Below, one piece after another: positions 3,344-58,440 of a stretch of DNA of 64,000 bases. The DNA lies in NCBI RefSeq assembly GCF_018977255.1, contig NW_024704742.1:112470001-112534000 (forward strand). The letters run 5' to 3'. The notes beneath the pieces were generated by a model. The model searched no databases, was not told the origin of the DNA, and saw nothing but the letters and a program-made list of their open reading frames with translations. Both the position numbers and the translations under genes were made by a program. Positions within the stretch are counted from its first letter, which is position 1, and each line of letters begins with the position of its first letter. This DNA is from Callorhinchus milii. Lineage: Eukaryota.

Positions 3344-3412
3344 TGGAGTCCTGTAGCTCAGTGGTTAGAGCACTCACCTTTGCAAGTGAGACATCTGGGT
3401 TCAATTCCTGGC
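3344..3412 (+). mobile_element. Isolated tRNA-like head of the young SINE family
   Basis: tggagtcctgtagctcagtggttagagc (A box)...ggttcaattcc (B box), same layout as the head at 47285. Body absent. Confidence 0.8.
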
Positions 3413-3746
3413 GTCAACTATAGTTTGTGCTCGAGAATTCCACATTCCAACTGCCCTCTCTTTAAAAAATTATTTTCTAGGTTCCACTTTAATTTTTCTG
3501 TGATCATCTTAAATGCGTGTTCTCTCATAACTAGCTCATTGACCAGCAGAAATGATTTATAAATATGTATCCTATCATAGCACCCACCCTTCATAGCTTT
3601 AGATAATAATATTCCTTGCATTTGATATAGATGCCTCCATTGGTTACTCCCTTAATTTTCTTAGCCCTAGTGAAAAAAATCTCTTCTCAAGTCTCGCTTC
3701 GTATCTGAAACCTCTCATTCCTGCTAACAACCTAGTAAATCTACAC

Positions 3747-4068
3747 TGGAATCCTGTAGCTCAGTGGTTAGAGCACTCGCTTTGCAAGTGAGAGACCTGA
3801 GTTCAATTCCAGGCAGGTCAGGGCGAAACCTTGGGCAAGTTTCCTTACTCCACACAGAGCCTAATAATAATCCCTCCAAAAAAAACAATAATAAATTGGT
3901 CATTTTCAATCCACGACTGTTTATGGGACGCTGCTGTGCGCAATTGACTGCCGCGTTCGCCCACAAATATACAGTCAATTCACTTTACAGTATATTCTGT
4001 GAAGCGCTTTGAGACGTCTAGAAGACGTGAAAAGCGCTATATCAAATGCAAGGATTATTATTATTATT
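3747..4068 (+). mobile_element. Young tRNA-derived SINE, short subfamily A, full length
   Basis: tRNA head with A/B boxes, ccttgggcaagtt CORE-like start, Deu-like gctgtgcgcaattgactgccgcg, L2-type stem-loop and (tta)n tail. Confidence 0.95.
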
Positions 4069-11421: not shown

Positions 11422-11769
11422 GTGGAGACCTGTAGCTCAGTGGTTAGAGCGCTCACCTCACAAGTGAGACACCCGGATTCGATTCCCGGCAGGGCGAAAC
11501 GTTGGGCAAGTTTCTTTACTCCACATGCCTCTGTTTACTTAGCAGTAAATAGGAACCCAGTCATTAGCGGGGTAATAATTGCTTCAAAAGAAAAAAAAGT
11601 CACTCAATTCACCACTGTTTGTGGGACACTGCTGAGCGCAATTGGCTGCCGCGTTTCACCCACAAAATATACAGTCAATTCACTTTACAGTGTATTCTGT
11701 GAAGTGCTTTGAGATGTCTCGAAGACACGATAAGGCGCTATATCAAATGCAAGGATTATTATTATTATT
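11422..11769 (+). mobile_element. tRNA-derived SINE, long subfamily B, full length
   Basis: tRNA head, full CORE-like block ttgggcaagtttctttactccacatgcctctgtttacttagcagtaaatagg, Deu-like block, tail atgtctcgaagacacgataaggcgc and (tta)n. Confidence 0.95.
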
Positions 11770-13123: not shown

Positions 13124-14760
13124 TTACATTTACATTTACTTTTACATTTGTAAAGCACCTTTCACATCGGGAGGATGTCCCAAGGCGCTGGACAGACAGA
13201 GTTACAGACCCGAGCTGAGAGGCGGGGTTGGGGAGGGCGGAGGGCAGGGGGGNAAGCAGGAGATCGAAACCACGGTCAAAGAGGAGGGTCTTGAAGGTGG
13301 CGAGGGAGGGGACGAGGCAGAGGGATTTCAAGGGTATCAGAGTGTTCCAGAGTGTGGGGACAGAGCGGGTGAAGGCCCGACTGCCAATAGTGGGGTGAGC
13401 GAAGTGGGGGACATGAAGCAGACTGGAGTCCGCTAAGCAGAAGGGGCAAGCAGGATGTTAGGGGGTTAGGAGATTGCAGAGGTAGGGGAGAGCAAGACCA
13501 TGGAAGGCTTTGAAGGTGACAACCAGGATCTTGAACTGTCTCCTCTGTGTGATGGGAAGCCATGGGGTTGGGTAAGGATGGGGTTGATAGGGTCGCAGAG
13601 CCTAGTGCAGGAGAGGACACGGTCTGCAGACTTCTGGATGAACTGCAGCCTGTGGAGGGAGGAGTTGGGGAGGCCGACAAACAATAAGTTTGCATAGTCG
13701 AGCGGTGTGAGACAGTGGCGGAGCCGGGCGATGTTGCGGAGGTGGGGGAAGGCAGAGCGGGTCATGACGCAGATGTGGGCTAGAAAGGATAGTTGAGGGT
13801 CAAACAAGACACCAAGGTTCTGGACTGGCTTAGCAAGGTGGAGTGTGCAACCATGGATGGTGATGCTGTCAGCGTCTGAGGTGAGGAGGTGCTGATGGGA
13901 GCCAATCAGGAGGGCCTCGGTCTTGTTGATGTCCAACTGAAGAAAGTTAGCTCTCATCCTAGACTCCCGGAGTCAAGGGTGAAACCAGAGAGGTAGAGTT
14001 GGGTGTCATCTGCATACATGTGGAAGTTCACCGCATGTCTGCGGATGATGTCACCAAGAGGGAGCATATAGATATTGAAGAGGAGGGGACCAAGGACAGA
14101 GCCCTGAGGAACGGCGCACAAGACAGTGCGGGGGTTAGAGGAGAAACTGTTTGTGGAGATAAAGTGGAGGCGGTGTGAGAGGTACGATCTGAACCAGTCA
14201 AGGACAAAGCCGTGAAGGTTGAGGTGAGAGGAGAGGTGGTGGAGGAGGATAGAGTGATCAATGGTGTCGAAAGCAGCAGAGAGGTCAAGGAGGACGAGGA
14301 GACAGAGGGACAGAATATCATTTGTCACTTTGACCAGGGTCATTTCCAAGGTCATTCCAGGACCTTGGAGAGGAAGGGGAGGTTGGAGATGGGGTAGTAG
14401 TTAGGGAGAAGAGAAGGGTCCAGGGAGGGTATTTAAGGGTAGGAGTAATGACTGCATTTTTTAATGGGGTGGGAACAGTACCAGAGGACAGGGAGAGGTT
14501 TATGATGTCAGTGAGTAGAGGGGCAAGGAGGTGGAGCTGGGAGGTACGGAGAGGGGTAGGGGTGGGGTCGAGAGAGCAGGTGGTTAGTTTCATACAGGTT
14601 ATGGAGGTGATGAGAGAGGGGAAAACTGTTTAAAAGTATGGAGAGAGGGATGGGTAGGGGTCAGGATGGGAGGAAGAGATGGGGAGGGGATAGCAGATGC
14701 AGTCGCAGAGGCAGCTGAGCAGATTCCCTCAACTTTGGATTTGAGGAAGTCCAGCATCAC
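13124..14760 (-). mobile_element. L2 LINE, 5'-truncated, frameshifted RT domain through 3' end
   Basis: ORF pieces LLDLSAAFDTIDH, VPQGSVLGPLLF, HMYADDTQLY and NFLQLDINKTE, with a (tgtaaa)n-type tail. Confidence 0.97.
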
Positions 14761-23624: not shown

Positions 23625-23997
23625 AAGATCTCCATGATCTCCTAACCACCTACCAACCTGTCCGCTCCTTAGACTTAGTGGACCCTGGCCTGCTTCACGT
23701 CCCTCACCTTGACTGCCCCACCATTGGCAGGCGGTGCTTCAGCCCCTCTGCCCCCACCCTCTGGAACTCTATCCCACAATCCCTCTGCCTCGTCACCTCC
23801 CCATCCTCCTTCAAGATCCCTCTCAAGACCCTCCTCTTCGACCGTACCTTCAATCACCCTCCTACTCCTACCCTTCCCACCCTCCTCCTCTCCTGATCCA
23901 AACCACCAGCTCAGGTGCAAATGGTCCAGCGCCTGGGGACGTCCTCCTAACGTGAAAGGTGCTATACAAATTCAATTTGTTGTTGTTGTTGTTGTTA
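23625..23997 (+). mobile_element. L2 3' fragment
   Basis: Translates IGRRCFSPSAPTLWNSIP..LKTLLF, followed by the stem-loop and (ttg)n tail. Confidence 0.92.
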
Positions 23998-24034
23998 TTC
24001 CCTATTGTAATTCCTTGACATGATTTGCAGAGCT

Positions 24035-24359
24035 TAATAATAATAATAATAATAATCCTTGCATTTAATATAGCGCTTTTCACGTCGGGAGGACGTCCCA
24101 AAGCGCTTCACAGAATACACTGTAAAGTGAACTGACTGTATATTTGTGGGCAAACGCGGCAGCCAATTGCGCACAGCAATGTCCCACAAACAGTTGTAGA
24201 TTGAAAATGACCAATTTTATTATTGTTTTTGGTTTTGGAGGGATTATCATTAGGCGTGTGGAGTAAGGAAACTTGCCCAAGGTTTCGCCTGCCTGGAATT
24301 AAACTCAGGTCTCTCGCTTGCAAAGCGAGTGCTCTAACCACTGAGCTACAGGACTCCAC
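24035..24359 (-). mobile_element. Young SINE subfamily A, full length
   Basis: Complete head to (tta)n tail, near-identical to 47285-47602. Confidence 0.96.
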
Positions 24360-27147: not shown

Positions 27148-27254
27148 GAAGAGTATCTGATGAGGGGTCATGGACCCGAAACATTGATTCACTTTCCTTT
27201 CCATAGATGCTGCCTGACCTGCTGAGTGTTTCCAACGACTTCTGGTTTTGTTTC
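27148..27254 (+). ncRNA. Penelope-type short element with a hammerhead ribozyme core (degenerate)
   Basis: CTGATGA-g-GGGTC-atg-GACCC-GAAA-caTT (27157-27185), then catagatgctgcctgacctgctgagtgtt. Paralogue at 52662. Confidence 0.75.
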
Positions 27255-27294: not shown

Positions 27295-27624
27295 ATGATG
27301 TGCCTTCGAGATATCTCAAAGCACTTCACAGAATATACTGTAAAGTGAACTGATTGTATGTTTTGTGGACAAGACATGTCAGCCAATTGTGCACAGCAGT
27401 GTCCTACCAACATTGGTGGATTGAGTGACCACATTTTTTTATAGTGATTATTACTCAGGAAAAGCGATCCGCCAATCAACTAACAAGTTGGTACCTACTT
27501 ATTGCTCAGTAAACAGGTGTGTGGAGTAAGGAAACTTGCCTAAGGTTTCATCCTGCCTGGAATCGAACCCAGGTCATCTCGCTTGCGAGGCGAGTGCTTT
27601 AACCACTGAGTCACAGGACTCCAC
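27295..27624 (-). mobile_element. SINE long subfamily B, near full length
   Basis: Reverse-complement head ctgagtcacaggactccac, CORE-like block, Deu-like block. Confidence 0.9.
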
Positions 27625-47202: not shown

Positions 47203-47630
47203 TAACATAACATAACATAACCTGTAGGAGCAAGAGTAGGCCATTCAGCCCTTTGAGCCTGCCCCGCCATTCAATCATGGCTGAGTGGAGTCCTGTAGCT
47301 CAGTGGTTAGAGCACTCGCTTTGCAAGCGAGAGACCTGGGTTCAATTCCAGGCAGGGCAAAACCTTGGGCAAGTTTCCTTACTCCACATGCCTAATAATA
47401 ATCTCTCGAAAACCAAAAACAATAATAAATTGGTCATTTTCAATCTACGAATGTTTGTGGGACATTGCTGTGCGCAATTGGCAGCCGCGTTCGCCCACAA
47501 ATATGCAGTCAATTCACTTTACAGTATGTTCTGTGAAGCGCTTTGGGACGTCCTCCCGACGTGAAAAGCGCTATATCAAATGCAAGGATTATTATTATTA
47601 TTATCTTCTAATCTAACTCCAGCTAATTCC
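47203..47630 (-). mobile_element. Second CR1 3' terminus, split by a SINE insertion
   Basis: 47203-47284 and 47603-47627 together reproduce about 46255-46336. Confidence 0.88.
47285..47602 (+). mobile_element. Young SINE subfamily A, full length
   Basis: gtggagtcctgtagctcagtggttagagcactcgctttgcaagcgag...gggacgtcctcccgacgtgaaaagcgc...(tta)n. Confidence 0.97.
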
Positions 47631-51635: not shown

Positions 51636-51987
51636 GGCCACCTCAGTAGTTATTTTCCTCATAATATTCTAAGTGCACATAACCAAAGATTTATACATCT
51701 CCAAGAAGGAACAAGAAACACAATATGTGGAGCTAATCTATAAAAGGAGCAATCTTGTTGTTTTAAAAAATAAGAATCTGAAACTGCGACAAGAGATCAC
51801 TTTGTTCCACTGGAAGAATACATCAAAGGCATCCCCTGAACATTGCAGTCAAAAGTGAAAGAAGAGGAAAATAGTACGGAGGATGAGGAAGGAGGTTTTC
51901 ATCAATTTAATTCAGGAGATTGGAGCAAAGCAATTTCCCAGTCGATACTCAGCTATTACAATTGTGCCAATACGAGACATAATTAAA

Positions 51988-52245: not shown

Positions 52246-52502
52246 GGTAATTGTAATTCTCCTCGGAGGAATGCTGTATATCCTGAGTGATGAACTAATC
52301 TGTTCAACAAGTATTGAAAACAGCAGGATTCAGCATGCAATGTATGGACTGATATTTGTTTGAATATTATCATTTTCATTAAATCTTTAGTATGATTGCA
52401 TTGCATTTTCTTTGTTGAGATATTATTAAGACAAAACAAAGATATGGTTTATTAACAGGGATAAAATATGTCAACAACATATCAAGTTATATCAACTTCA
52501 TT

Positions 52503-52635
52503 TAATAATAATAATAATCCTTGCATTTGATATAGTGCCTTATCATGTCTTTGAAACGTCTCAAAGCACTTCACAGAATATACTGTAAAGTGAATTGACT
52601 GCATATTTTGTGGGTGAATCACGGCAGCCAATGGA
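52503..52635 (-). mobile_element. SINE 3' half
   Basis: aataatccttgcatttgatatagtgcc...cggcagccaat. Confidence 0.88.
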
Positions 52636-52661
52636 TTGAAATAATCATTTAGATCTTAAGA

Positions 52662-52767
52662 GAAGACAGTTCTGACGAAGGGTCATGGACCTGAAACATT
52701 GACTCACTTTCCTTTCCCCATAGATGCTGCCTGACCTACTGAGTGTTCCCAGTGACTTCTGTTTTTG
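52662..52767 (+). ncRNA. 106-bp Penelope-type element with a hammerhead ribozyme core, flanked by a 15-bp direct repeat
   Basis: agtt-CTGACGA-a-GGGTC-atg-GACCT-GAAA-caTT-gact. Flanks atttagatcttaaga at 52647-52661 and 52768-52782. Confidence 0.8.
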
Positions 52768-53554
52768 ATTTAGATCTTAAGATGTGTCTTGTGTAAGCAG
52801 CTCAAAGATTTCTGAATATGAATGTCATCCTGGTTACATACTCAATCAATTAATGTTCTGGGAAGTAGGTGTTTTTTTTAGTTGAGGCTGGGACTAACCG
52901 AAGAGCAAGAGCACAAGAAGCTTGGGGAGTTCTATGGTGCCAAGTAATTGCACCACTCATAAAGCACAATGTAGGCTCACATGCGCAAGAATTTATATAA
53001 CATAAACTACTCTGCGGAATGAGCCGAATCCAAGATAATTAACATCTACGTCTGGCAATCAGGCAATAGGTGGCACTTGCAGCAAAGTGATCAAATTCTC
53101 TGATGAGTCCTGCTGGAAGTCTGGTACAGTGCAAGTGGGGTATGGAGGAGTCACTTGCCTCTGTCAGTAGAACCCTACAAGTAATCTCTTTCTAGCACTA
53201 GATTCTCATAGGTGCCTGTTCTCTGTTTCCTCTTATCATCGAGTGCCATATTTCATAATAATAATAATATTCCTTGCATTTGATATAGCGCCTTATCATG
53301 TTGTTGAGACATCTCAAAGCTCTTCACTGTATTTTACACAGTATTTAGTGGCTACTGAGCTTAATACCAAAGATCACATCATTGCATTCTCTCCTCTGTG
53401 CTAGTATTTTAGTCAAATGTCCTTATGTGAATGACAAACAACATCAGTTACTACATTTCAGTAGAAAAATCCTGTGAAGCACTTTGAGACATTTTGATGA
53501 TGTAATGAGTTGCTATATTAAATGCAAGGGTTATGATTATATTCACAATGAGTC

Positions 53555-58009: not shown

Positions 58010-58440
58010 TTACATTTGGTAGAGCACCTTTCATATCAGGAAGATATCTGAAAGCACTTCACAGGATATACTGCTATGCGAAGTGACTGTATGTCGTGGG
58101 TGAATGTGGCAGCCGATTTGCGCACAGCAAAATCCCATAAGCAACTTTAAAACTTTAAAGTGATCGGTCAATTTTACTTGGGGGATTGTTGGTCAGGACA
58201 CTGAGTGAAATGCCCTCCTCTTTTCGAAGAGTACCATGGCATCTTTAAACTCTACCTGTACAGGAAGATGGGACCTCAGTTTAAGATCTCGTCTTAAGGA
58301 CAATACCTCTATCAATACAGCACCTCCTCCTTGTATTGCATTGCATTGTCAGTATAGACTATATGATTTCTATGTTCTGACGTGGGATTTGAACCCACAA
58401 CTTTCTGACTCAGAAGCTCGCAAATGAGCTAACCTGACAT
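58010..58440 (-). mobile_element. Old Deu-SINE, near full length
   Basis: gtggcagccgatttgcgcacagcaa...gggacctcagtttaa...tttgaacccacaactttctgactcaga. Confidence 0.85.

Follow-up and report, generated by a model that had tools for sequence, protein, structure and literature searches.

A 106-bp hammerhead-bearing insert in Callorhinchus milii DNA is probably a decayed pseudo-LTR stub of a Penelope-like element

The 106-bp insert at 52662..52767 (+ strand) of the window, by which we mean the whole 64,000-nt stretch of Callorhinchus milii DNA that was analysed, is in all probability (roughly 0.82) a dead, 5'-truncated stub of the pseudo-LTR (pLTR) of an endonuclease-bearing Penelope-like element (PLE) belonging to a high-copy family. 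An exact repeat search placed the insert between two identical 15-mers at 52647..52661 and 52768..52782 (both +), which lie 121 bp apart from start to start and are probably a target-site duplication. This pair is the only family of direct repeats in 52450-53000, the 15-mer occurs twice in the 64-kb window, and the chance of such a pair, with each end left free by ±5 nt, is about 2e-7. The first-pass annotation had described the unit and its bracketing copies in these terms, and both proved exact.

Relative to the hammerhead core, the unit ends at -10 and +68. Junction filler may make up its first 5 nt (52662-66), which are almost a copy of the end of the duplication; in one joint row other letters precede 52667. 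The insert lies ~13 nt past a SINE fragment (52498-52634), and the DNA to the right of the insert is unique. One contig each from samples X4 and X5 runs from the interior of the element through the right 15-mer into this unique flank; two more samples thus carry the insertion. The fifteen joints listed in the contig comparison, beside 1162 others, all fall inside the neighbouring SINE, and none of the fifteen skips the element. Samples X4 and X5 also differ slightly from the window in the unique right flank, at 52797, 52871, 53046 and 53152, and these differences are probably allelic. Contig cover of the unique flank was patchy in organisms B and C. A profile built from both copies in the window (the other is described below) detected neither an inverted partner nor a third copy there, and the insert apparently has no 30-40-nt tail; both are optional features of PLE insertions. 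Tandem arrangement was likewise absent from the window, where the unit is single and its nearest copy is 25 kb away.

The hammerhead opens with the 5' strand of helix I (52668..52671, +), which forms 4 bp with the 3' strand (52701..52704, +), including a G-U pair adjoining the core, and is placed by both fold and covariation. The CUGANGA box (CTGACGA, 52672-52678) is followed by an extra A at 52679 (together 52672..52679, +), and helix II (52680..52692, +) consists of 5 bp (52680-84/52688-92) and a 3-nt loop, with a G-U pair at 10.1-11.1 in this copy. GAAA (52693-96) and then C-A-T-T (52697-52700) complete the core (52693..52700, +); the latter is the would-be half of a palindromic helix III and includes U16.1-N17, and the nominal cut site falls between 52700 and 52701. 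The CUGANGA and GAAA boxes and U16.1-H17 are thus present in type I order, and the extra nucleotide between 9 and 10.1 is the A at 52679, in a column that also formed part of the pattern used to find relatives. The core, helix II, GAAA and a short helix I were all located where the first-pass annotation had put them. Its helix II stood as regards the 5 bp and the 3-nt loop, but the closing pair, G-U here and with C in most relatives, had been overlooked. The core pattern with a GAAACRT end matched the window twice against 0.01 expected (100 shuffles), a significance that is overstated, as the pattern was written after both copies had been seen.

Hammerhead covariance models had been proposed as a check; those of Rfam returned no hammerhead family, either for the whole window at E up to 1 or for 351 nt at E up to 10. 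The single-strand folding energy was not unusual compared with shuffles (z = -0.03 to +1.6). Since the motif lacks helix III, neither outcome is unexpected, and the folding comparison is uninformative. The ATG in loop II opens no frame, as a stop follows after five codons; in the anole element, by contrast, the ORF starts at stem II.

The abundance of the family was assessed by aligning to the window, at 80% likeness, the contigs from four runs (organism A twice, organisms B and C once each). For organism A the summed depth peaked at ~0.6 million over 52712-52742, compared with 5-9 in the unique right flank, and for organisms B and C it reached 4.0 and 4.5 million. Summed depth is not copy number, but with an element-to-flank ratio of 7e4-1e5 the family comprises roughly 1e4-1e5 copies, that is tens of thousands, in three related organisms. 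Depth was greatest in the 3' part of the repeat (52705..52767, +), which ends 68 nt after the core. It dropped about five-fold from 52722 to 52692 (112,000 at the latter) and far more at the CUGANGA box, where the mean of the bin was 14,000; past 52773 it was below 700, a more than 300-fold fall in that bin. The profile is compatible with a fixed 3' end and variable 5' truncation, and alignment bias could contribute to the 5' drop. A family-specific 22-letter stretch was found at 0 loci in viral contigs and 0 in metagenomes. One bacterial contig matched this stretch and was set aside as a chance hit, carrying no hammerhead.

The same contigs indicate the majority letters of the family. At 52692, C makes up 68-76% of the summed depth (T in the window copy), so that the majority has G10.1-C11.1, and at 52698, G makes up 58-72% (A in the window copy), giving a majority in which 15.2-16.2 is C-G and palindromic. 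Since the family majority keeps both letters, the window copy has, judged by sequence, lost G10.1-C11.1 and the palindromic 15.2-16.2 at two CpG sites. Opposite-strand deamination products account for 11-13% of the depth at 52693 and 8-11% at 52697, and at both CpG sites the reference-like letter is in excess, which suggests alignment bias. The window copy also departs from a 95-99% majority at 52717 and 52738, and its divergence from the family majority is at least ~4%.

It had been proposed that AACATT in place of the palindromic AACGTT reflected CpG decay and that cleavage was probably weak or lacking. The letters at 52697 and 52698 agree with the decay, of which one of the two losses had been spotted. 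As to cleavage, the dimer fold was modelled at -1.4 kcal/mol in this copy, at +4.8 in the second and at -9.1 to -22.1 in eight intact relatives; cleavage of the window copy is therefore predicted to be weak or absent, and the copy is probably catalytically dead or nearly so.

The second copy of the family, which the earlier annotation had not noticed, lies at 27148..27254 (+; aligned over 27156-27253) and is 88% identical to the insert over 100 nt, with the similarity ending at 52770. Its helix I is disrupted and its helix III is non-palindromic, and its 10.1-11.1 pair is G-C. No duplication was recognisable around it, the best likeness of its ends being 7/9. Both window copies begin within ~10 nt of the core and finish at nearly the same place, and both have A at the position of 52698 (C-A, non-palindromic 15.2-16.2). 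Being shared, this letter may have been inherited from a subfamily source and need not reflect decay in place.

Relatives of the family were sought with a 22-letter gapped pattern of its core, which gave 109 matches at 106 metagenome loci, several of them re-assemblies of one site. From 44 listed upstream frames, 15 were picked for a Pfam scan; five scored above the GIY-YIG cut-off and there were two RVT_1 matches below cut-off. The ORF-linked relatives have a CxxxxCxxC linker, which is tied to Neptune and Nematis (PMC8557442). With six frames from four of the matched loci as protein queries, 29 of the 109 matches were found to have PLE-like similarity that ends on the same strand no more than 600 nt upstream, usually ~100 nt from the core; the figure is 18 among the 58 matches with at least 500 nt upstream (the four query loci included). 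The 64-kb window itself showed no PLE protein similarity (best tblastn E 0.37). It is the ~28-nt core by itself that makes the link to PLE ORFs, the 3' 67 nt having no relative among the PLE-linked loci. The occurrence of this core just downstream of RT/GIY-YIG sequence in those 29 matches bears out the first-pass annotation in calling the motif a Penelope-type minimal type I hammerhead, and solo pseudo-LTR, its name for the unit, is an apt description of a stub without an ORF. At one further locus (L072:10-2900) the core is directly followed by a 961-codon open frame, with PLE-like similarity ~850-2880 nt downstream, and by its sequence this is possibly a near-complete element behind an upstream pLTR.

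Many of the relatives also appear to be insertions. Flanking repeats were compared between 81 distinct matches with enough flank and 839 random positions, the rows not being fully independent. Exact repeats of at least 10 bp flanked 21 of the 81 motifs versus 58 of the 839 random positions, and repeats of at least 12 bp flanked 14 versus 18. The duplications of these related stubs measure 10-14 bp in 20 of 21 cases and 22 bp in the other, so that the 15 bp in the window is slightly longer than most. On the 3' side, 8 of the 21 end 58-72 nt past the core and 11 end 88-119 nt past it, which fits a tail-less and a tailed form; the 5' ends are spread from -3 to -378. Short stubs outnumber ORF-bearing copies among the relatives. 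One of them (L101) is built like the window unit: an ORF-less unit of 98 nt with a 12-bp duplication and ends at -6 and +64.

Covariation was examined in 24 rows, comprising the two window copies and 22 motifs picked from 53 distinct ones, with motifs in another register left out. Because the search pattern prescribed helix II, the covariation evidence concerns helix I alone, which lay outside the pattern. All four pairs of helix I change on both sides (29 cells versus 11.7 in shuffled alignments; 0 of 500 shuffles), and every slid control was lower. A separate group of motifs (L005, L006, L007, L008, L025, L066, L084, L098 and similar) has a longer helix II, two extra letters after the palindrome and a shifted helix I register, and constitutes a variant with a short palindromic loop 3.

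The insertion can be pictured as follows. The GIY-YIG nuclease of a PLE would have nicked both strands of AT-rich DNA at positions staggered by 15 nt. Reverse transcription, primed at the cut, would have started internally, ~68 nt downstream of the core at what would be the tail-less 3' end of the pLTR, and would have halted after ~100 nt, just beyond the hammerhead; gap filling by repair would then have produced the 15-bp duplication. The hammerhead would have come along as a passenger from the parent pLTR, where it would have been active, if at all, as a dimer with a palindromic helix III or with the aid of the element's protein. CpG-type changes at 52692 and 52698 after insertion would have turned the closing pair into G-U and abolished the self-complementarity of helix III, and as modelled the window copy, having no tandem partner, almost certainly would not cleave.

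Several steps have precedents. Minimal hammerheads are described in PLE pLTRs, most of them as single motifs that probably come from truncated PLEs (PMC4209133), and solo pLTRs and duplications of 8-10 bp have been described (PMC3846280). In vitro, reverse transcription starts internally and cutting occurs in AT-rich DNA with a preference for ATT, and hammerhead cleavage is protein-assisted and dispensable for insertion (PMC11167929). Truncation is given as the usual fate of PLE insertions (bioRxiv 10.64898/2026.07.22.740005). The duplication in the window starts with ATT, which might be counted towards a cut by a PLE nuclease, yet this support is weak since just 1 of the 21 related duplications starts in this way.

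Minimal hammerheads in PLE pLTRs, including thousands of dispersed single motifs per genome, are already known, having been described in 2014 (Cervera and De la Pena 2014, PMC4209133). The features given there are an extra nucleotide between 9 and 10.1, a G10.1-C11.1 pair and a palindromic 15.2-16.2. The motif described here resembles these in its type I topology, a helix I of 4-5 bp, the extra nucleotide, the lack of helix III in the monomer and its dispersal as single motifs, and the family majority also has G10.1-C11.1 and the palindromic 15.2-16.2. The window copy differs in its G-U at 10.1-11.1 and its non-palindromic 15.2-16.2, and its helix II of 5 bp differs from the 7-8 bp given for the Schistosoma motifs in the same paper. 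Fishes, coelacanth, frog and reptiles are among the hosts named there, and no cartilaginous fish is among those named. A literature search, made outside Repbase, most subscription papers and supplements, found no paper pairing the species name with 'hammerhead ribozyme'; the supplements of PMC4209133 and of bioRxiv 10.64898/2026.07.22.740005 may list the family.

Endonuclease-bearing PLEs (Penelope/Poseidon, Neptune and Nematis) are described as leaving 5'-truncated pLTR units with a target-site duplication, an optional inverted partner and an optional tail of 30-40 nt (PMC3846280, PMC8557442, PMC11167929). The insert agrees with such insertions in being a short 3'-end unit in a probably duplicated AT-rich target, with its 3' end at the tail-less distance of related families, and departs from those elsewhere in lacking an inverted partner and, apparently, a tail. 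Its 15-bp duplication also differs from the 8-10 bp of Adineta PLE insertions (PMC3846280). With metazoan non-LTR retrozymes it shares a non-coding, PLE-derived sequence, a type I hammerhead, existence as a monomer and a probable duplication longer than 4 bp (PMC7229834, bioRxiv 10.64898/2026.07.22.740005). Retrozymes are, according to the same two sources, defined by tandem hammerhead-bearing units and yield circular RNAs, and the bioRxiv source argues that they derive from pLTRs. Unlike the cnidarian retrozymes, which have units of 220-245 bp and canonical hammerheads, there is here one 106-bp unit with a minimal motif and no tandem, known from DNA alone.

Two alternatives to the truncated stub explain the unit as a product of the same elements. 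A dedicated non-autonomous mini-retroelement of ~100 nt, whether SINE-like or a retrozyme monomer, could have arisen from a PLE pLTR, multiply from its own short or circular RNA and be inserted by PLE protein in trans. This would account for two window copies of nearly equal extent in a very abundant family, and the non-palindromic letter, found in 2 of 2 copies, could be the signature of a short master; vertebrate retrozymes, too, are reported to derive from pLTRs and to occur as monomers, in families of 51-972 bp (bioRxiv 10.64898/2026.07.22.740005). We consider it unlikely, given that the window holds no tandem copy, the hammerhead is minimal and not canonical, and the nominal cut site is 68 nt away from the 3' end and does not coincide with it. 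The drop in depth towards the CUGANGA box also looks as if many copies were shorter than the ribozyme, alignment bias again being a possible contributor, and in related families stub lengths grade continuously into those of ORF-bearing copies. The retrozyme-like mobilised unit that the first-pass annotation had offered as its alternative is disfavoured by the same absence of a tandem, the minimal motif and the steep fall in depth towards the 5' end inside the motif. That annotation had also set its proposal against a family made up of random 3' stubs of a full-length element; 3' stubs of many lengths, close to that picture, are what the related families give, and it is in the related families only that they are seen. 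A true solo pLTR, the remnant of a once complete insertion whose two direct pLTRs had recombined, would likewise put one pLTR between duplications, and solo pLTRs occur in Adineta vaga, where recombination or deletion has been suggested for some (PMC3846280). This is still less probable, as truncation is the usual fate of PLEs, short stubs outnumber ORF-bearing relatives, and 1e4-1e5 copies would demand very frequent recombination over a repeat of ~100 bp.

The remaining two alternatives deny either the decay or the insertion. A ribozyme co-opted to act on a host transcript might be suspected from the presence of the insert in two further samples and from two copies on one strand 25 kb apart, but it has very little in its favour when two defining positions are altered, the modelled dimer fold is nearly unstable, the locus is one copy among tens of thousands, and 0 convincing Pfam matches for a host gene were obtained among 150 frames. 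These were the exon-like frames at 51840-51983 and 52882-52944 and the 148 longest non-repeat frames of 374 listed; no host gene was recognised among the 150, and the one Pfam match below cut-off was taken as chance. That the 15-mers belong to the element or to a local duplication, and are no insertion footprint, could be entertained in view of the loosely similar letters at both ends of the second copy (7/9). It is hardly credible: the 15-mer is found only at these two places in the window, the similarity between the copies ends at 52770, and the depth collapses past 52773.

Within the truncated-stub reading, it is conceivable but doubtful that 5' junctions cluster immediately before the hammerhead because the motif, folded or bound by protein, halts or redirects reverse transcription. 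In a related family, 30 of 38 non-edge copies lose their likeness to the ORF-bearing reference within 14 nt of the core, a figure to be read with the variable T-run and subfamily divergence that break alignments there, and with a search that kept whole-core copies only. Among the metagenome loci (L009, L011, L035, L042, L044, L074, L079, L088 and others) 5' similarity often stops 12-14 nt before the core, frequently with an inverted partner, and in L009 the junction is a palindromic A-run/CCGG/T-run. Either a preference for this 5' junction or an artefact of aligning the variable T-run may explain the stop. If the proposal were true, PLE hammerheads would have a non-catalytic role, and the ~100-nt hammerhead-bounded unit would be a self-standing mini-element with tens of thousands of copies in the lineage. 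The role of PLE hammerheads is described as an open question (PMC8557442). The single locus matters little, as it is one decayed copy of an abundant and described kind of repeat, or ordinary genomic debris. The family, however, provides a large natural collection of PLE insertion footprints in a vertebrate genome that evolves slowly, and the 5' ends, 3' ends and duplication lengths across its copies could tell whether the hammerhead shapes reverse transcription.

About one third of the window is repeated within the window. The exon-like frames at 51840-51983 and 52882-52944 flank the insert and had no Pfam match; contig cover of the latter was patchy in organisms B and C, and the two are probably not exons. 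RT fragments are also present in the window, and these we take to be LINE-like from their family resemblance. A scan for bacterial promoters and terminators found nothing in this animal DNA, to which it is irrelevant. A microRNA-family match on both strands at 23928-24107 was rejected as spurious, being caused by a long hairpin there (-98.7 kcal/mol over 230 nt), which is apparently formed by two tail-to-tail repeat fragments. Single N positions occur at 13253 and 23198. The SINE-like repeat beside the insert (52498-52634) has an AAT-repeat end and recurs at ~30 other places in the window, with a summed depth of 5-10 million in organism A. Seven tRNA-like matches were found (3352-3413, 3753-3817, 11426-11497, 24288-24352, 27548-27620, 47289-47360 and 58382-58431), six of them above the Rfam cut-off and mutually similar, with two scoring 55-58 bits, and judged by sequence they are probably SINE heads.
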